A DNA stretch of 64,000 nt, taken from positions 8,267 through 72,266 of the forward strand of contig CAYITD010000005.1 in the NCBI GenBank assembly GCA_964366325.1, given 5' to 3'. A program made the position numbers and the translations under genes. A model generated the notes under the pieces. It worked only from the letters and a program-made list of their open reading frames with translations. It had not been told where the DNA came from and did not search any database. Shown here one piece after another: positions 703 to 46,388 of this stretch. Within the stretch, counting starts at the first letter, position 1. Every line of letters starts with the position of its first letter. Source of the DNA: Candidatus Woesearchaeota archaeon. GTDB lineage: Archaea; Nanobdellota; Nanobdellia; Pacearchaeales; GW2011-AR1.

Positions 703-886
703 TTAGATAGATAATAAAAGAAGGATATTTTTATTTTAGTTTTTTACATTATAGTTTTCTAGAGAAAAAGGAAAAAACAACAGCTTTAAAAAGCATCAAA
801 TCTCTTGATTTATAGGAATTTGATTAATTTCGTGTATAGGAATAGCAAGTCTATTTCTGATCGAGTGTTTGAATTTTAAAAATAAA

Positions 887-2302
887 ATGAATGAAGAAAG
901 CTTCAATGAGTTAGGATTGGGAGAAAACCTACTGAAAGTTATAGAAGAAATGAGGTTTACCGAACCTACTGAAATACAGAAGAAGGCCGTTCCTTTGGTT
1001 TTAAAAGATAAAGATGTTATCGGAAATTCTGCCACGGGATCTGGGAAAACTTTGGCGTTTAGTGCAGGTATAATTGAAAATTCTAAAAGAGGCTTGGGTG
1101 TTCAGGCTTTGATTTTGACTCCTACTAGAGAACTTGCAGACCAAGTAGCGCACTCAATAAAACAGTTCGCTAAATATTATAGGCTTAACATTGAAGAGGT
1201 TTATGGAGGGGTTTCCATGGGTCCTCAGATAAGAAAAGTGGAGCACGCGGACATAGTTGTTGGCACTCCTGGAAGAATTTTGGATCATATAGAGAAAAGA
1301 ACACTTAATTTGTCTAAATTGAAAACTCTTGTTTTGGATGAAGCTGATAGAATGGTAGATATGGGTTTTCTTCCTGATGTTGAAAAAATAATAAACTCTT
1401 GTCCAAAAGAAAGACAGACTCTTTTGTTTTCTGCAACTATCTCTCAGGACATAAATTACATTTCTAAAAAATATATGAAAAGCCCTGTTTTTGTTGGTGT
1501 TGAAACTTATGTTGATGCTTCAAAACTTAAACAAATTTATTATGATATTCCTTTAAATCAGAAGTTTTCATTATTGGTTCACTTATTAAAAAAGGAAAGA
1601 CCTGGACTGGTAATGGTATTTTGTAACACAAGAAGAAATGCCGATATTGTAACGAGGAATTTGTTTAGATATGGACTGAAAGCTGTGGCAATTCATGGTG
1701 GTTTGGAGCAAAATAGAAGGAGTAATATCATGAAAGAATTTCATGCTCAAAGCATAGGTATTTTAGTTTGTACGGATGTTGCAGCTCGTGGCCTAGATAT
1801 AAAGAATGTTTCGCACATTTACAATTATGATTTGCCTATGAATAGCGCAGATTATATACATAGAATAGGAAGAACAGCCAGAGCTGGAAAAGAAGGAGAA
1901 GCTATAAGTTTGGTTTCTAATAGAGATTATGAGAACTTTGGAAAAATCAAGATGGATGATTCTTTAAAGATAAATGATGAAAAGCTTCCTGAGTTTGAAC
2001 AACTAACGCCTAACTTTTCTAAAGAAGCTGATGAAAGAAGAGGTTCTGGAGGCGGAGGAAGATTTGGAGGGAATAGAAGTTTTGGTGGAAGATCTGGAGG
2101 AAGTGGTGGTAGATTCGGTGGTGGATCAAGAGGAGGATCTTCAGGACCTAGAAGGTTTGGAGGAAATAGAGAAGGTTCAAGTAGGGGCGGAGGAAGATTT
2201 GGAGGATCAAGAGATGGAGGATCTTCTGGTTCAGGTAGGTTTGGTGGAGAACGAAGGGGTGGAGAAAGAAGAAGTTTTGGTGGAAGAAGATTTTCTAGAT
2301 AG
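887..2302 (+). CDS. DEAD-box ATP-dependent RNA helicase with C-terminal RGG/RFGG repeat tail
   Basis: Q-motif region TEPTEIQ, motif I ATGSGKT, PTRELA, VLDEADRM, SAT, HRIGRTARAG; tail of repeated GGRFGG; start moved to ATG 887 (MNEESFNELGL). Confidence 0.9.
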   Translation: MNEESFNELGLGENLLKVIEEMRFTEPTEIQKKAVPLVLKDKDVIGNSATGSGKTLAFSAGIIENSKRGLGVQALILTPTRELADQVAHSIKQFAKYYRLNIEEVYGGVSMGPQIRKVEHADIVVGTPGRILDHIEKRTLNLSKLKTLVLDEADRMVDMGFLPDVEKIINSCPKERQTLLFSATISQDINYISKKYMKSPVFVGVETYVDASKLKQIYYDIPLNQKFSLLVHLLKKERPGLVMVFCNTRRNADIVTRNLFRYGLKAVAIHGGLEQNRRSNIMKEFHAQSIGILVCTDVAARGLDIKNVSHIYNYDLPMNSADYIHRIGRTARAGKEGEAISLVSNRDYENFGKIKMDDSLKINDEKLPEFEQLTPNFSKEADERRGSGGGGRFGGNRSFGGRSGGSGGRFGGGSRGGSSGPRRFGGNREGSSRGGGRFGGSRDGGSSGSGRFGGERRGGERRSFGGRRFSR

Positions 2303-6546: not shown

Positions 6547-6795
6547 AAAAATAAAAATCCTAAACACAGCAAGCTGTGGGGCATTTTTAAGCCTCAAACT
6601 GAGACTGTCGAAACAAGCTGCAGAGTGTTAAACTCAGTTCGAACAATAAAGAAATTTCCTAAACCTTCGCTATCCCCACAGCAAGCTGATGGAGTATTAC
6701 GCTCGGTTTCTAGATGGAAATTTCTAATTGCCAAATTGACGGCACAGCTCTGCTGTGGTGTATTGAACCCAATTTGACAATAAAAAAATAAATTT
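6547..6795 (+). repeat. intergenic hairpin repeat family, composite four-module copy (copy B)
   Basis: Four hairpin+tail modules; 25-nt core ATTTTTAAGCCTCAAACTGAGACTG at 6583-6607; collinear with copies D/E (first half) and copy F (second half). Confidence 0.75.
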
Positions 6796-7546: not shown

Positions 7547-8330
7547 TTATTTTACTCTCCAAGACCTTCTCATGCATCGATGCTTTGGAAATTAAAAATG
7601 AGATTGTTTCTTTTGTTGCATAACCTAGATGTATTGCGAAACCGAGAGATTTTGAAATTGAGTGTTTAAGTTCATCAAATACTCCTTTCTTATCTATCTT
7701 TATTTCTTCATAAACCATGTCAGATTTTGAATCGTAGGAAAATAATGGAATGAAACCGACTTTCATAGGATTTATTTTTAATTTACTCATGACGCTTGCT
7801 ACGTTCTCTTTTATTGCTTCACCTTTCTTTACTATAGTTGCACCAATTTTAACAGCTAATTTCCCTCCTTCAACCGCTACTTTCAAACCAACAGAGGATA
7901 ATTCTGAAATTGCTGGACCTGGAATCAACTCTGTAGGGCCAGATTCAACATTGATATCTTCAGGAGCAATATCTCCTGCTTTAGCTTTTGTAGAACTTTG
8001 ACTTTCCGTAAGCAATGCAGATAATTCGAAAGTGTCTATATCTGAGAATATTAAAGCGCAATCTGATTTAACTTTTTCCTTGAATTGCTGCAACATGCCT
8101 TTCTCTGATAAAGTTATTGCTCTTAAAAGAATTGATTTTTTAATTACCATAATATCAGCACGACCTCTTAAATCACTCTTAATTTTTTGAAACTGTGAAG
8201 CTGGAAGACCTTTTGTTGAAGCCACTAAAATAGTTCTGCTATGTTTTAACTTTTTTAATATTTCATCTACCTGCGCCTTTTTAAATTCTGGAACGGGCTT
8301 TATTCTTTCTTTTGGAGATTGTTTTTTCAT
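7512..8330 (-). CDS. rpl10: 50S ribosomal stalk protein P0 (L10), short form without C-terminal tail
   Basis: PEFKKAQVDEILKKL..ILVASTKGLPASQFQKIKSDLR typical P0 N-domain; ends ..INASGGSENASS. Confidence 0.9.
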   Translation of the reverse strand: MKKQSPKERIKPVPEFKKAQVDEILKKLKHSRTILVASTKGLPASQFQKIKSDLRGRADIMVIKKSILLRAITLSEKGMLQQFKEKVKSDCALIFSDIDTFELSALLTESQSSTKAKAGDIAPEDINVESGPTELIPGPAISELSSVGLKVAVEGGKLAVKIGATIVKKGEAIKENVASVMSKLKINPMKVGFIPLFSYDSKSDMVYEEIKIDKKGVFDELKHSISKSLGFAIHLGYATKETISFLISKASMHEKVLESKINASGGSENASS

Positions 8331-20947: not shown

Positions 20948-21052
20948 TTCCTTTTTGTATTCTCTTTTGTTTATAATTCTTGTGTTGTTAAGTAAAATTC
21001 TATTGTTTCGAGCAATCAACAAATTTATATATTAAAAAAATCACAGATAAAC

Positions 21053-40437: not shown

Positions 40438-40624
40438 CATAGCCTCGCCAGCTCACGAGATTGCAATCTCGGATCCTCTAACATTTAACATGTTTGGAGT
40501 GATTCAAACCTTCCAGGTTCGAAGAGATAGCCTCGCCAGTCTGAAGAAATCTAACAATTAATTTCTTGGCACTGTCGATGCTAATTTTATCTCGTTTCAC
40601 TCGATAATAACATAGCCTCGCCAG
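40438..40624. repeat. three direct copies of the tRNA-Gln 3' end (ATAGCCTCGCCAG), about 85-89 nt apart
   Basis: Identical 13-mer at 40439-40451, 40527-40539 and 40612-40624 (the last is the acceptor/T-stem end of tRNA-Gln); perfect 16-nt palindrome CGAGATTGCAATCTCG inside the first spacer. Confidence 0.75.
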
Positions 40625-40712
40625 GATTCGAACCTGGGTCATGGGAGTTCTCTTACAGCACTAAAGCACATTAACCAGAGTCCCATATCCTAGACCGCTA
40701 GACGACAAGGCT
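40613..40712 (-). tRNA. tRNA-Gln (CUG anticodon) with 27-nt intron at 37/38
   Basis: A1-U72 acceptor AGCCTTG/CGAGGCT, anticodon stem TGGGA/TCCCA, loop CTCTGG^..^C; intron at 40648-40674; 4-bp helix CTCT/AGAG flanked by 3-nt bulges; T-arm CCAGGTTCGAATCCTGG. Confidence 0.8.
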
Positions 40713-40764: not shown

Positions 40765-42480
40765 TCAATCTTTCTCATGAATAATATCGTGATGTCCCTG
40801 TTTTCTTCTGGCTTTAAGTTCTTCAATATTCTTCAGTCCTTCACGGACGAAGTTTTCCTTGGCAAAGAGGTTTTCTTCTATTAAATTTGAAGTATAAGTT
40901 CCTCCAAGGAAATGTGGAAGAACAACATAAGTTGCTCCTGAGCTATAAAGCTTCAAAGCATCTTCAATTCCATGAGATACTGCGATTATTATTGCTTCTT
41001 TGTTTACTGCGTGAATCTTTTTTACTAATAGTATATTTGTTTCAAAATCTGGAATAGTAGAAACTATCATCTTTGCATTTCTTAATGGCAAGTCTTGCAA
41101 CAATTCAATATCTTCTGCATCCCCATATTGACAATTTATTCCTGATTTTGCCAAGTTCAAAATAATTTCTGGATTGTTATCAACAATTAAGAATCTTTTT
41201 TTTATATTTTTGAAAGATTTAACTAAACTGTAACCTATCCTATTATATCCGAAAAGGAGTATGTCATAATCTTCCCCCCTATAGAACTTACCTTCATCCT
41301 TCTTTAATCCCTTGCGTTCAAAACAATTAAGATAGGGGGCGAAAAAATGATATAGTTTATTTCCATATGGAACAAAATAAGCTGAACCTCCCATGGTTAT
41401 TAGTCCTATCAAAGTCATTATAGAAAGTATCTCTGGAGAAAGATGATTTAATTTTATACCTAGAGTTATGAGTATAAATGAAAATTCACTTATCTGAGAG
41501 ACAGTCAGACCTGCAAGAAAACCGTTTCTTTTTGTGTATCCTAAACGACCCATTAAAAACATAACAATTATTGGATTTCCTATAAATATCAAGAGCGAGA
41601 AGATTATTATTGGAATGTGCATTCCAGATAGTGAAGAAAAAGAAAGCTGAGAACCTAGAAGTATGAAAAACAACAAAAGGAAGAAGTCACGAAGGGGCTT
41701 CATTCTAGAGCCTATTTCATATCTAAACGGGGAAATAGACAAAGAAATTCCTGCCAACAAAGCACCTATTTCCATTGAGAAACCTATGTAGTCAAAGAAA
41801 CTACCTAGTGCAAATGCCCAGCCTATTGAGAACAGCAACAAAAGCTCTTGATTCTTCGCAACCTTCCTTGTTATTCGCGGTAATATATAAAAACTTATCA
41901 AAAACAAAATTATAATGGATCCTGCGCCTATACTAAACTTTTCAAATGCGAAAGAAGAAAAACTTCCTGAGTTGGAAAGCGAAGAAACAAACATTAAAAT
42001 CAAAATTGCAATTATATCTTGTACTATTAAGAAGCCTATTGAGATTTTACCATAAAGAGTAGAGATATCTCCCTTATCTGATAACAATTTCATGATAATT
42101 ATTGTTGAACTAAATGAAATTGCTAAAGCTATGTAGGCTGAAGTTATCCAGTTGAAATGTAAAAACAGTCCTATAAAAAAACCTAAAATAAAAGTGAAAA
42201 TTATCTGACCTACACCTGTAATTAAGGAGACTAAGCCTACTTCTTTAATGACTTTCGGGTCTAAATTTAAACCAACCATGAACATTAAAACTGCGACACC
42301 CATTTGTGCAAAAGTAGATATTTGATTTACGTCCCCTAATAAGTTAAGAAAGTGTGGACTTACTATTACTCCAGCCAATATGTAAGCGACAATCAATGGC
42401 TGTTTTAATAAACGAATTATTGAAGAAACTAAAAATGCAACTATGATTATCAAACTCAAACTGATAAATGTTGATTCCAT
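40765..42480 (-). CDS. Kef-type (CPA2) cation:proton antiporter with C-terminal RCK/TrkA-N domain
   Basis: About 12 TM N-terminal part; ILLFGYNRIGYSLV Rossmann-like start of the RCK domain. Confidence 0.85.
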   Translation of the reverse strand: MESTFISLSLIIIVAFLVSSIIRLLKQPLIVAYILAGVIVSPHFLNLLGDVNQISTFAQMGVAVLMFMVGLNLDPKVIKEVGLVSLITGVGQIIFTFILGFFIGLFLHFNWITSAYIALAISFSSTIIIMKLLSDKGDISTLYGKISIGFLIVQDIIAILILMFVSSLSNSGSFSSFAFEKFSIGAGSIIILFLISFYILPRITRKVAKNQELLLLFSIGWAFALGSFFDYIGFSMEIGALLAGISLSISPFRYEIGSRMKPLRDFFLLLFFILLGSQLSFSSLSGMHIPIIIFSLLIFIGNPIIVMFLMGRLGYTKRNGFLAGLTVSQISEFSFILITLGIKLNHLSPEILSIMTLIGLITMGGSAYFVPYGNKLYHFFAPYLNCFERKGLKKDEGKFYRGEDYDILLFGYNRIGYSLVKSFKNIKKRFLIVDNNPEIILNLAKSGINCQYGDAEDIELLQDLPLRNAKMIVSTIPDFETNILLVKKIHAVNKEAIIIAVSHGIEDALKLYSSGATYVVLPHFLGGTYTSNLIEENLFAKENFVREGLKNIEELKARRKQGHHDIIHEKD

Positions 42481-42596
42481 TCTTCACCTCTTTTTAATAC
42501 AAGAAAGAAGCATATTTAAAGTTTAACGATAAATCCTTTGTTGAGACAAATAGAAGCGTTTTTATATTTAATCATCTCTAGATTTATTGAGGAAAG

Positions 42597-42911
42597 ATGA
42601 ATTGGATAATAGTTGCGGGTATCGTAGTTGTATTGTATGTGTTATTTATGTTTAAAATGAACAACTTTAGAACTAAAGTTGCTTTTATATTTATATTTCT
42701 CGGGGTTTGTTTTGTTTTGATGACAGCTTATTATGTTCTTTCTGATAATAAACCTGATTTGTCAAATATAGATGGATGGACACAAAGCGGTAAAGTGTAC
42801 TTTTCATGGCTTACTAATGCTTTTAGCAGCGCTTTTAAAGTAACTGGCGATGCAATAAAAGAAATTGGAGGAAATGTAGCGAAAAACTCTACAAATATTA
42901 CGAGAAAATGA
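42597..42911 (+). CDS. hypothetical membrane protein
   Basis: 104 aa, two TM segments; ATGA overlap with the next ORF. Confidence 0.4.
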   Translation: MNWIIVAGIVVVLYVLFMFKMNNFRTKVAFIFIFLGVCFVLMTAYYVLSDNKPDLSNIDGWTQSGKVYFSWLTNAFSSAFKVTGDAIKEIGGNVAKNSTNITRK

Positions 42912-43165
42912 AGATAGGAATATTTATAGTTAAATTTGTTTTTATTGGCATGTTGTTCATAGTTAGTACGGAGAATCTTTATATGAAAAATGCTGAAGAT
43001 AGAGCAACTTTTGCTGGCCAGGTTTATAATTGGGTAGGGGAACTTTTCTCACACGTTTGGCAGATAACTGGTTTCGTTGTAAACTCTGAATGGTTGCCTA
43101 AAGATATGAATGAAAGTAAAAGCTCTTTTGAAGATAGTTTGAAAATTACAAGCAAACTATCTTGA
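42908..43165 (+). CDS. hypothetical membrane protein
   Basis: 85 aa, N-terminal TM. Confidence 0.35.
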   Translation: MKIGIFIVKFVFIGMLFIVSTENLYMKNAEDRATFAGQVYNWVGELFSHVWQITGFVVNSEWLPKDMNESKSSFEDSLKITSKLS

Positions 43166-43203
43166 TCGGAGTGATCTATAGATAATCCTGTTTTGCGTGA
43201 CAT

Positions 43204-43305
43204 AATAAAAATCCCAACCTCAGCAAGCTGTGGGGTATTTTTAAGCCTCAAACTGAGACTGATCGTGGAAGCTGCGGAGTATTAATTCAGTTCGAGCAAT
43301 CAACA
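43204..43305 (+). repeat. intergenic hairpin repeat family, two-module copy (copy D)
   Basis: AAAAATCCCAACCTCAGCAAGCTGTGGGGTATTTTT hairpin, 25-nt core at 43237-43261, then GTGGAAGCTGCGGAGTATTAATTCAGTTCGAGCAATCA. Confidence 0.8.
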
Positions 43306-43402
43306 GAATTGTCTATAACAAAGTTTTTTATATATGGAAAATGAACTTATTTTATGCCTCTATAGCTCAATGACACAAAATATATAAAGTTTCTAATTAT
43401 TT

Positions 43403-44425
43403 ATGCCTATGAGAGTAAAATTTAGAGAAGAAGTTGATCGAAAAAAGTTTTTTGAGTTGTTGAAAACTGGACTCAATAGTAACTGGAAGAATATAAGGAA
43501 AAAGTTTAATGTACCAAAATCTACCTTTGAAAAATACAAAAATGGTAAACTGCTTATTTCAGATGATTTATTTGAAAAATTATTAATTTATGTAGATGAA
43601 AATAAAAAAAAGTCTATAAAAGAAAGTATAGAAAATTTACCAGATAATTTCGGACAAATTAAGGGTGGTAAAAAAGCATATGTTATAAATTTTGAAAAAT
43701 TTAAGGAAGGTAGAAAAATAAGAAGTAAATCTGGAGAAAAATTAAATAAACAGTATAGAAATTTGTTTAAGGGCTTTGACTTAAAACCAGAGGTTTGTGA
43801 ACTAATTGGTGCTTTCATAGGCGATGGTTGTTTTAATGTTTATAAAAATAAAGTTTATCATATAGAGTTTTCTGGAAATTTTGGACTGGATATAGAATAT
43901 TATCAAGAAAGAATTATTCCGATAATTGAATCAATCATAGAATATATAAATCCACATATTTACAAACCGAAAACAAAAAATAATGCATTAAGAGTTGTAT
44001 TTTATTCCAAAAAACTTTTTTACTTCCTTAAAGAAATTGTTGGTTTTATTCCAGGAAAAAAGACATTCACTGTTGCAATACCTGAAAAAATTATGAATAA
44101 TGAAGAATTAATGAGATCTACAATAAGAGGAATATTTGACACAGACGGAACAATTTTCTTGGATAGAAGAAAAAGCTATAAAAAGCCATACCCTAGAATT
44201 TCTTTACAAACGGTAAGTAAGAACCTTTATGGGCAGTTAGAAAACTATCTGAGTGAAAAATTCAGTCTTTATACATACTTTAATGAAAAAAGGCATGTTT
44301 ATATAATAGAAATTTATGGTATCAATCAGCTGAGAAAGTGGATGTCTCTTATAGGTTTCTCGAATAAAAGACATCTTGATAAAGTTGCCCTAGTAGCTCA
44401 GTCGGTAAGAGCGCAACATTGGTAA
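43403..44425 (+). CDS. double-motif LAGLIDADG homing-endonuclease-like protein
   Basis: LIGAFIGDGCF and IRGIFDTDGTIF motifs; the ORF runs 39 nt into tRNA-Thr and stops at a TAA in its anticodon loop. Confidence 0.75.
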   Translation: MPMRVKFREEVDRKKFFELLKTGLNSNWKNIRKKFNVPKSTFEKYKNGKLLISDDLFEKLLIYVDENKKKSIKESIENLPDNFGQIKGGKKAYVINFEKFKEGRKIRSKSGEKLNKQYRNLFKGFDLKPEVCELIGAFIGDGCFNVYKNKVYHIEFSGNFGLDIEYYQERIIPIIESIIEYINPHIYKPKTKNNALRVVFYSKKLFYFLKEIVGFIPGKKTFTVAIPEKIMNNEELMRSTIRGIFDTDGTIFLDRRKSYKKPYPRISLQTVSKNLYGQLENYLSEKFSLYTYFNEKRHVYIIEIYGINQLRKWMSLIGFSNKRHLDKVALVAQSVRAQHW

Positions 44426-44460
44426 TGTTGAGGTCGGGGGTTCAAGTCCCCCCTGGGGCT
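44387..44460 (+). tRNA. tRNA-Thr (GGU anticodon)
   Basis: GCCCTAG/CTGGGGC acceptor, D-arm GCTCAGTCGGTAAGAGC, anticodon arm CAACA-TTGGTAA-TGTTG, T-arm GGGGGTTCAAGTCCCCC. Confidence 0.9.
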
Positions 44461-44533
44461 TTGTGTTTAATGATAGTTTAGTTTCATTCTCGGTAGAGGC
44501 TTATTGTTACTTTAAAGTTATAATAATAAAAAG

Positions 44534-44563: not shown

Positions 44564-45199
44564 ATGGTTGACAAGAATAAAAAACTAGAAGATTTAGGAT
44601 ATTTTATAGCTCATGCTTTCCATCATGCAGTTTCGGGACAAAGCGAGAGCCCGAGATTTAGAGAGTTTTATAGGAGAACAACCAAAATGCTTTGGGATGA
44701 AAGAGGGAACCCAGAATATAGAGTATTAAATGAAGAAAGAATAGACTTATTAAGAAATTTGTTAGGTATATCAAATTGGGAGGGACCACAGAGTTTAGAA
44801 ATACAGAATATAGTTCAAGGAAACTCAAAAGGGTGGAGATTTTTAGTTAAGTCTCATTTATTAATACCAAATTTAGAAGATGAGGTTGAGGCAGGATTAT
44901 TGACCGATATCGTGAACGCATCAAGGAGAGAGCTAGAAGGAATACATTTGAACTTTGGCTATTTTGACTCTAAGGATTTAAAGGATTTGGAAAAATCTGG
45001 ATATGCACTTGGCGAAACATTCAAACCAAATTGGCATAGTTTAGTGCCAGTAAATGAAGAGAAAGCCAAAATAGAACGCTGTCAAAAAGATCTCATTACA
45101 GACTCTTTATATGCTATCGGGTTCGCTTTTCCAGAATTTGCAAGTGCCATAACATACTCCGATGTTCACCCAGTTTTTAGCGATAGGATGATTAAATAA
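44564..45199 (+). CDS. hypothetical protein (orphan, island gene)
   Basis: 211-aa ORF with its own promoter; no motif recognised. Confidence 0.4.
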   Translation: MVDKNKKLEDLGYFIAHAFHHAVSGQSESPRFREFYRRTTKMLWDERGNPEYRVLNEERIDLLRNLLGISNWEGPQSLEIQNIVQGNSKGWRFLVKSHLLIPNLEDEVEAGLLTDIVNASRRELEGIHLNFGYFDSKDLKDLEKSGYALGETFKPNWHSLVPVNEEKAKIERCQKDLITDSLYAIGFAFPEFASAITYSDVHPVFSDRMIK

Positions 45200-45239: not shown

Positions 45240-45443
45240 ATGGAACAAGAAGTGAAAATAAATGCTCATGAAATTATGTCAAAATTAGCAAGACTACAAT
45301 TAGATATAAATTATATAAAAGAACACATGGAAGATTTGGCTCTTTCTGAGGAAGACTTGGAAGCAGTTGAAGAATATGAAAAGGAAAAGAAATCTGGGAA
45401 ACTCATTTCCCATAAAGATCTTAAGAAAGAACTAAATTTATAA
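45240..45443 (+). CDS. putative antitoxin of the RelE-like toxin
   Basis: 67-aa acidic helical protein; its stop overlaps the toxin ATG by 1 nt. Confidence 0.45.
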   Translation: MEQEVKINAHEIMSKLARLQLDINYIKEHMEDLALSEEDLEAVEEYEKEKKSGKLISHKDLKKELNL

Positions 45444-45694
45444 TGCTAGAAGTAAAATATTCGAATCAAGCATCTAAATTTCTAAAGAAAATTTATAAGG
45501 AATTAGCAAACCGTATATTTGACGAAATAGAAGCGCTTCAGCAGAATCCTTTTCCACAAAACATGAAAAGAGTTGAAGGTAAGAAATTATTTAGAGTGAG
45601 AGTCGGAGATTATAGAATTCTTTACGAAATTGACAATCAGAACAATCTACTAGGCATAGTTAAAATAGACAAAAGAGAAAGAGTTTATGATTGA
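45443..45694 (+). CDS. relE: RelE/ParE-family toxin
   Basis: 83 aa; FRVRVGDYRILYEIDNQNNLLGIVKIDKRERVY typical RelE C-terminal pattern. Confidence 0.7.
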   Translation: MLEVKYSNQASKFLKKIYKELANRIFDEIEALQQNPFPQNMKRVEGKKLFRVRVGDYRILYEIDNQNNLLGIVKIDKRERVYD

Positions 45695-46287: not shown

Positions 46288-46388
46288 TAAAAATACCCTA
46301 CAGCTGCTGTGTTTGGTATTTTTAAGCCTCAAACTGAGACTGATTGTGGCAAGTTGCGAAGTATTAACTCAGTTCGAGCGATAAAATA
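46288..46388 (+). repeat. intergenic hairpin repeat family, two-module copy (copy E)
   Basis: AAAAATACC..CTACAGCTGCTGTG..GGTATTTTT long hairpin, 25-nt core at 46318-46342, then GTGGCAAGTTGCGAAGTATTAACTCAGTTCGAGCGATAAA. Confidence 0.8.

Follow-up and report, generated by a model that had tools for sequence, protein, structure and literature searches.

Why does a gene for a LAGLIDADG protein run, with no stop codon of its own, into a tRNA gene and end in the anticodon loop? The question is raised by a contig of Candidatus Woesearchaeota archaeon (GenBank assembly GCA_964366325.1, contig CAYITD010000005.1), of which we analyzed a stretch of 64,000 nucleotides (nt) (positions 8,267 to 72,266), referred to here as the window. 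The window is AT-rich, with a G+C content of ≈33%. The listing of its open reading frames (ORFs) includes a double-motif LAGLIDADG ORF of 340 amino acids (aa) at 43403–44425 on the forward strand. When the sequence was read through, the TAA stop codon (44423–44425) was found in the anticodon loop of a tRNA-Thr(GGT) gene, whose GGT anticodon occupies 44421–44423, and the overlap between the two genes consists of 12 sense codons and the stop. The initial annotation had described an ORF without a stop before the tRNA, ending in the anticodon loop, and on this point the ORF listing, ARAGORN, Rfam and the sequence itself agree.

The explanation that we consider probable is that the ORF encodes a homing endonuclease of the free-standing kind, which attacks tRNA-Thr genes and makes up for the damage with a spare tRNA of its own. 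Region 43370–44467 then represents a 1.1-kb mobile cassette inside a resident tRNA-Thr(GGT) gene, between its positions 15 and 36. In the cassette, a promoter-like box precedes the endonuclease gene, whose 3' end is fused to a complete tRNA-Thr(GGT) gene (Table 1). The cassette takes the place of ≈20 nt of the resident gene, which comprised the remainder of the D arm, the anticodon stem's 5' strand and the loop as far as the anticodon. Direct observations cover the anatomy, the empty sites, the use of the same junctions across lineages, the endonuclease fold and the catalytic residues; cleavage, immunity of the spare tRNA and expression are predictions. The decayed 3' relic at 44468–44501, the tRNA as the spare copy of the cassette, the broken resident gene and the family-wide design did not figure in the initial annotation.

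Empty sites and the origin of the tRNA fragments

The resident gene is represented by one fragment on either side of the cassette. The 5' fragment spans the 5' strand of the acceptor stem and the start of the D arm, and is identical (14/14) to the native tRNAs at the empty sites L083, L084 and L096 (L-numbers denote loci retrieved from other genomes or contigs); none of 2000 shuffled sequences scored as high. This bears out the earlier suggestion that a 17-mer upstream of the ORF was the 5' remnant of a tRNA. The 3' relic is less well preserved: when it is aligned to positions 36–73 of the native tRNA of L096, identity is complete over the last 14 nt but the T arm has lost its 5' strand, and 26/34 positions are identical to the native tRNA. 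The score of a shorter alignment, between 44481–44501 and positions 54–74 of the native L084 tRNA, was reached by 8 of 2000 shuffles. The acceptor strand of the relic, TAGAGGC (44494–44500), is fully complementary to GCCTCTA (43356–43362) in the 5' fragment, and not to the strands of the spare tRNA, which has the acceptor strands GCCCTAG and CTGGGGC, and in which both the acceptor and the T stem are unlike the native type. Intact counterparts of the 3' fragment are present in L004, L016 and L042. In these three loci and in L017, spacers of 8–30 nt are found at the place equivalent to the right end of the cassette.

TM105 and TM85, a pair of small membrane-protein genes, are conserved upstream neighbors of the tRNA-Thr(GGT) locus and are found also in L003, L004 and L015. 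A search anchored on TM85 retrieved 29 loci, of which five were occupied and 15 were the empty sites anticipated by the initial annotation, with TM85, a TATA box and an intact tRNA-Thr(GGT) gene, and no endonuclease gene. The empty-site tRNAs have the sequence tttttatat at the same distance upstream as the TATA-like box that precedes the 5' fragment in the window, which suggests that this box is the retained promoter of the native tRNA gene.

The tRNA at the empty site of L084 reads GCCTCTATAGCTCAG-CCGGTTAGAGCGCAACATTGG-TAATGTTGAGGTCCCGCGTTCAAGTCGCGGTAGAGGCT, that is, the 5' fragment of the occupied locus L004, 20 nt, and the 3' fragment of L004. The two fragments match this native tRNA at 53/53 positions, and the spare tRNA of L004 matches it at 41/53 over the same spans. 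The fragments are also closer to the native sequence than the spare tRNA is in L016 (49/53 vs. 37/53) and L042 (48/53 vs. 36/53). Since the fragments of L004 are entirely native and its spare tRNA is not, we interpret the occupied allele as the native gene in which positions 16–35 have been swapped for the cassette.

The closest syntenic relatives of the window, L083, L084 and L093, are all empty. A 571-aa neighboring protein, 60–63% identical, is common to the window and these three loci only. Because deletion of a cassette cannot rebuild positions 16–35, the three loci are best read as never having been invaded.

The arms of the outer fragments are complementary at 7/7 positions within each locus, as in the pairs GCCTCTA/TAGAGGC, GCCACAG/CTGTGGC and GCTCAGA/TCTGGGC. 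The arms of L004, L016, L042 and the window vary from lineage to lineage and match the native tRNAs of their own group, with identical junctions (15/16 and 35/36). Lineage-specific, complementary arms with the same junctions indicate independent insertions into different resident genes. Occupied and empty alleles thus exist at one syntenic site, and the same junctions recur across lineages, as is characteristic of a mobile, free-standing homing endonuclease gene. The proposal that a free-standing endonuclease had been inserted at a tRNA gene is substantiated by the fragments and the empty sites at syntenic loci.

Some loci without an endonuclease gene nevertheless retain pieces of tRNA. L095 (2770–2912) and L109 (2860–3027) have a 5' fragment of the native tRNA-Thr followed by a cassette-type tRNA, and L092 (3410–3530) and L086 (2954–3085) have tRNA 3' fragments right after the tRNA. 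These leftovers look as if the cassette had been lost, or as if gene conversion had left out the endonuclease gene. Broken endonuclease ORFs were found in L072, in L078 and in a second copy in L104; tblastn detected no decayed endonuclease genes in the longer gaps between TM85 and the tRNA.

Table 1. Features of the tRNA-Thr(GGT) locus, in window coordinates.
Feature	Coordinates	Strand	Remarks
TM105, small membrane-protein gene	42597–42911	+	Synteny anchor pair
TM85, small membrane-protein gene	42908–43165	+	Anchor used to retrieve empty and occupied sites
TATA-like box TTTTTTATATAT of resident tRNA	43324–43335	+	Center ≈26 nt before the 5' fragment
5' fragment GCCTCTATAGCTCA of resident tRNA-Thr(GGT) "A"	43356–43369	+	Positions 1–14
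Cassette left end, B recognition element (BRE)/TATA-like box CACAAAATATATAAAG	43374–43389	+	Conserved
LAGLIDADG homing endonuclease gene (cleavage predicted)	43409–44425	+	338 aa; upstream ATG at 43403 gives 340 aa
Complete tRNA-Thr(GGT) "B", spare copy	44387–44460	+	ARAGORN; Rfam 71.9 bits
Spacer at cassette right end	44461–44467	+	
Decayed 3' relic of resident tRNA-Thr(GGT) "A"	44468–44501	+	Positions 36–73

The LAGLIDADG protein and its family

Its fold and its motifs place the protein firmly in the LAGLIDADG family, as the initial annotation had it, and cleavage activity is predicted. The Pfam profile PF14528 (LAGLIDADG_3) matched with 36.9 bits against a cut-off of 22.5, the threshold being reached by the second half-domain only, and a match to LAGLIDADG_2 (residues 132–303) stayed below threshold. 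Both motifs, GAFIGDG (with D141) and RGIFDTDG (with D248), have an aspartate that is invariant in 51 homologues, and the Asp that closes each LAGLIDADG motif is the catalytic position in characterized enzymes. An AlphaFold2 model made from the alignment of these 51 homologues had a predicted local distance difference test (pLDDT) score of 93.3 and shows the pseudo-dimeric α-β-β-α-β-β-α fold. With Foldseek, the nearest solved folds were I-Tsp061I and I-DmoI, with target TM-scores of 0.73–0.74; the top matches (I-Tsp061I, I-DmoI, I-SceI and the bI3 maturase) had E-values of about 1e-8 to 1e-9. Weak sequence similarity was seen to 1dq3 (PI-PfuI) and 2dch (I-Tsp061I). A helical N-terminal domain of ≈125 aa precedes the double-motif core, and profile searches with this domain gave helix-turn-helix (HTH) hints below threshold and nothing stronger.

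Translation probably begins at the second ATG (43409; MRVKF), since this agrees with the N-termini of the homologues and with the conserved spacing between box and ATG. In 14 loci, the box at the left end of the cassette lies 3–4 nt past the tRNA fragment, with the ATG 35–37 nt further on; in the window, the center of its TATA element is ≈26 nt before the ATG at 43409. This spacing gives the geometry of a leaderless archaeal mRNA, and the box is probably the endonuclease gene's own promoter.

A protein search yielded 278 homologues that were 40–62% identical over their full length and annotated as Nanoarchaeota, Pacearchaeota and Woesearchaeota; the family is found in Iainarchaeia as well, and the sequence is present in groundwater metagenome runs, in keeping with a groundwater archaeon of the DPANN type. 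Relatives are encoded in 361 genomes, each representing one species. We retrieved 80 related loci for an analysis of their layout, and in at least 70 of these a tRNA-Thr gene adjoins the endonuclease gene, in one of three arrangements.

Type 1 is represented by 19 long-form loci, the window among them, and by 13 short forms that lack the N-terminal domain. Its order is a tRNA 5' fragment (1–15), 3–4 nt, the box CACAAA-ATATATAAA (from the start of which the distance to the ATG is measured), the endonuclease gene, a complete tRNA-Thr(GGT), a short spacer and sometimes a 3' fragment (36–73). All of the long-form loci (19/19) have kept the 5' fragment next to the promoter box. In the window, exactly 33 nt separate the Gly codon of the conserved GFSNKRHL from the start of the spare tRNA, and the same spacing is found in 16 of the 19 long-form loci. 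Type 2 (22 loci, Iainarchaeia-like) starts with an antisense 3' fragment, running from position 73 back to about 50, followed by a promoter and an endonuclease gene that converges on a complete tRNA-Thr(GGT or TGT). Type 3 (17 loci) consists of a 5' fragment, a TATA box, a complete tRNA-Thr(CGT), a promoter box, the endonuclease gene and a 3' fragment from position 36, and here the TAA stop codon is T36-A37-A38 of the relic. Paralogues that are 24–28% identical have the same layout at other tRNA genes. In L096 (about 1215–2200, reverse strand), the ORF spans a whole tRNA-Gln(CTG), with a tRNA-Gln 5' fragment and a TATA box upstream. At tRNA-Glu(CTC), L104 has a remnant ORF that extends into the tRNA (about 1330–1510, reverse strand) and L108 has a copy that adjoins it (820–1641, reverse strand).

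Nearly all homologues have C-termini made of translated tRNA sequence after the conserved IGFSNKRHLDK, with tails such as ..ASVAQW*, ..ALVAQSVRARHW* and antisense-tRNA peptides, e.g., AGIEPATS. Homologues in the same frame as the window often stop sooner, at a TAG in the D loop (..ASVAQW*, ..ASVAQR*, ..ASVA*), a stop that is seen in relatives with a shorter D loop, and another frame gives ..KLPQ*. The initial annotation had attached meaning to the position of the TAA exactly at the canonical intron site. This did not hold up: the stop is dictated by the frame in which the ORF meets the Thr-GGT loop T-TGG-TAA, and relatives with shorter D loops stop at TAG, so the coincidence with the intron site is meaningless. 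Orthologues with an independent stop, which would have spoken against the early view of the locus, were not found, as 19/19 long-form relatives read into the tRNA.

Some short relatives (in L052 (3622–3770), L047, L069, L070 and L050) are situated upstream of tRNA-Thr(GGT) genes with up to three introns and share a different upstream motif, CACTGGACA. The introns in these loci include ones at non-canonical positions, and ARAGORN misnames several of the tRNAs.

Proposed mechanism and competing explanations

In the mechanism that we propose, the enzyme would cut intact tRNA-Thr(GGT) genes in or near the replaced 20-nt segment, and repair of the break from an occupied allele would copy the cassette in. 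The 5' fragment would act as the homology arm on the left, and either the 3' fragment or the spare tRNA as the arm on the right. This choice of right arms would explain why the 5' fragment is always kept in the long-form loci and the 3' relic can be lost. The spare tRNA would supply the function that has been destroyed, making invasion harmless and clean loss of the cassette lethal. The overlap of the ORF with the tRNA would be a by-product of the tight fusion between the two genes, with the tRNA sequence providing the stop codon (the anticodon-loop TAA here, the D-loop TAG in many relatives).

The endonuclease mRNA is probably leaderless from the ATG at 43409, and a second transcript, led by the 5' fragment, could start from the native promoter that is still in place. 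No convincing TATA box that could serve the spare tRNA was found within the last 40 nt of the ORF, which makes co-transcription of the gene and the spare tRNA likely, and there was no excess of synonymous-site conservation at the 3' end of the ORF. The spare tRNA would then probably be cut out of the endonuclease transcript, and it is plausible, as the initial annotation suggested, that its processing by ribonuclease P (RNase P) strips the last 13 codons, including the stop, from the endonuclease message.

A number of observations weigh against this mechanism. No strain-level empty allele for the population of the window was found in contigs from four groundwater metagenomes; the joints that this search returned came only from the tRNAs of other organisms, and the sole metagenome contig with the left flank had the same occupied allele. 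Among viral contigs there was no close relative that could be the vector, only distant LAGLIDADG proteins with 25–33% identity. A comparison of spare and native tRNAs over positions 8–35 revealed no consistent difference that would explain immunity, and the tRNA that follows the endonuclease gene in L003 is of the native type, identical to an empty-site tRNA at 73 of 74 aligned nt (98.6%). The 3' fragment is present in only 7 of the 19 long-form loci. Finally, full-length conservation of the protein in hundreds of species, at 40–62% identity, would also fit a domesticated function.

Domestication is the strongest of the alternatives, although we judge it unlikely. It holds that the LAGLIDADG protein has been inherited vertically beside tRNA-Thr since a single ancient insertion, that the fragments are old scars, and that the protein has taken on a role in the host, e.g., regulation of the tRNA locus by DNA binding, or a function akin to that of RNA maturases. 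Conservation over the full length across Nanoarchaeota, Pacearchaeota, Woesearchaeota and Iainarchaeia would be expected of such a protein, as would the fixed spacing between gene and tRNA and the retention of the 5' fragment beside the promoter box in 19/19 loci; the extra N-terminal helical domain, with its faint HTH hints, and the high rank of LAGLIDADG maturases, bI3 for example, in the fold comparison point the same way. However, the distribution of the gene in syntenic relatives is patchy, and the nearest ones are empty, with an intact native tRNA that simple deletion could not have restored. The arms are lineage-specific and still complementary, and the relic of L004 is 100% identical to a native tRNA, as an ancient scar would hardly be. 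The catalytic Asp residues show no variation, and decayed copies exist.

A second alternative, which we regard as very improbable, is that the gene belongs to a bulge-helix-bulge intron or separates two halves of a split tRNA, and that the outer fragments are exons to be joined in RNA. The organism has an intron-containing tRNA (40613–40712), related tRNA-Thr genes carry 1–3 introns, and the right junction (35/36–38) is next to the canonical 37/38 site. ARAGORN proposed an 831-nt intron around the ORF in L073, which proved to be an artefact of a duplicated 15-mer. Exons that join to a complete tRNA are nevertheless not what the fragments (1–14/15 and 36–73) offer: the outer pieces lack positions 16–35, including most of the anticodon, and could give no tRNA, and the 3' piece of the window has in addition lost the T arm. 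Nor does the locus resemble a split tRNA of the Nanoarchaeum type, since the middle segment is absent and the tRNA-Thr(GGT) alongside is complete. The tRNA after the ORF is complete by itself (71.9 bits), so the ORF is not in an intron of the downstream tRNA, and the missing positions argue equally against an intron of the outer one. Of the description of the endonuclease as "free-standing or formerly intron-borne" in the initial annotation, the first part is supported.

Long spurious ORFs do arise in AT-rich genomes and translated tRNA tails are a common artefact of gene callers, yet an ordinary gene that merely happens to extend into a tRNA is a negligible prospect given the confident LAGLIDADG fold, 278 homologues, and abutment in 70/80 loci with fixed spacing.

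Relation to known systems and neighboring features

The usual view is that a homing endonuclease gene can persist in an essential gene only if it is hidden in a self-splicing intron or an intein, the other option being a place between genes. In our preferred explanation, the element instead destroys an essential tRNA gene, yet carries a complete spare, and it is widespread in DPANN archaea. To our knowledge, and in the literature that we searched, compensation by a carried replacement has so far been known only from a few fungal mitochondrial protein genes. Literature searches turned up no description of tRNA-targeting LAGLIDADG cassettes in archaea, and an endonuclease cassette that carries a tRNA appears to be an undescribed design.

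The closest analogues are the mobile ORFs (mORFs) of fungal mitochondria, in which an endonuclease ORF likewise enters an essential gene with a foreign copy of the part that it displaces. Genes invaded by mORFs, among them atp6 and cox2, receive a foreign gene end along with the ORF; the native end is displaced and persists as a relic that is closer to uninvaded relatives than the inserted copy is (PMC3630166). Examples are found in atp6 of Allomyces macrogynus and in atp6, atp9, cox2 and nad3 of Glomus (Paquin et al. 1994, as cited in PMC3630166). In L004, L016 and L042, too, the displaced native segment is nearer to uninvaded relatives than the inserted copy. Unlike mORFs, the element described here resides in an archaeal chromosome and targets a tRNA gene; it carries a whole spare gene rather than a C-terminal coding segment, it replaces an internal stretch of 20 nt with relics on both sides, and its ORF is joined to the 5' end of the spare gene and not in frame with a protein.

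The monomeric double-motif fold is shared with I-DmoI and I-Tsp061I, from archaeal rRNA introns, and with the intein enzyme PI-PfuI, and all of these target a conserved RNA or protein gene. In the present case, there is no intron or intein and nothing is spliced, neutrality would come from the spare gene, and the protein has ≈125 additional aa at its N-terminus. A free-standing endonuclease gene beside tRNA genes is known from phage T4, in which SegB resides in a tRNA gene cluster and break repair is accompanied by co-conversion of flanking markers. SegB, however, is a GIY-YIG enzyme located between genes; its target is not split and there is no replacement copy. Integrase-type elements also target tRNA genes, displace a fragment and rebuild a functional tRNA from element sequence. 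They have an integrase gene and tRNA-derived att repeats, whereas the cassette consists of the endonuclease ORF and the tRNA only, has no integrase and no overlapping direct repeats, leaves non-overlapping relics (1–15 and 36–73), and is only 1.1 kb long.

We consider doubtful a broader proposal: a DPANN guild of LAGLIDADG endonucleases, each dedicated to one tRNA gene, which it would break at 15/16 and 35/36–38 while carrying a spare. The targets may include Thr-GGT, Thr-TGT, Thr-CGT, Gln-CTG and Glu-CTC. If the proposal were true, such elements would be one source of the fragmented, split and intron-rich tRNA genes of these lineages. Separately, and equally doubtful, maturation of the spare tRNA by RNase P would leave a non-stop endonuclease mRNA, because the stop codon sits inside the tRNA, and would thereby tie the dosage of the endonuclease to tRNA processing.

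The cassettes leave tRNA fragments at defined positions in an archaeal group known for split and intron-rich tRNA genes, and the idea that mobile elements drive the fragmentation of tRNA genes thus becomes directly testable. The family also constitutes a set of natural meganucleases, with probable targets of ≈20 bp that can be read from the empty sites. For annotators, a caution is that a tRNA-derived tail on such a protein reflects the real structure of the locus.

Downstream of the 3' relic is an ORF of 211 aa (44564–45199), for which no relatives were found when it was tried as a synteny anchor. It is followed by a gene for a ParE-family toxin (45443–45694, forward strand; Pfam E = 2.6e-15), and the small ORF before it is a possible antitoxin gene; the pair (45240–45694, forward strand) begins ≈740 nt past the end of the relic (44501). 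Upstream, at 40613–40712 on the reverse strand, is the intron-containing tRNA mentioned above, which scored 48.8 bits with Rfam and was missed by ARAGORN at its default settings. Its anticodon loop suggests tRNA-Gln(CTG) with an intron of ≈27 nt, and a tRNA-Gln is the upstream neighbor of the locus in L003–L005.

Intergenic repeats of ≈60–120 nt occur at 2761–2818, 6550–6614, 21007–21038, 43204–43322 and 46310–46349. One copy is directly upstream of the tRNA-Thr locus, where the initial annotation had noticed it, and another is beside a tRNA-Ser. In the source groundwater metagenomes, contigs are 10–20× deeper over 43146–43327 than over the flanks, indicating that the repeat is abundant in the groundwater community. 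One metagenome contig (L112, 1–2098) is identical to 42100–43860 of the window and then diverges abruptly inside the endonuclease ORF, past about position 1700 of L112; a chimeric assembly is a more probable explanation than a variant allele. At the far left of the window, 2047–2305 contains tandem coding repeats that are rich in Gly and Arg (RGG-like).

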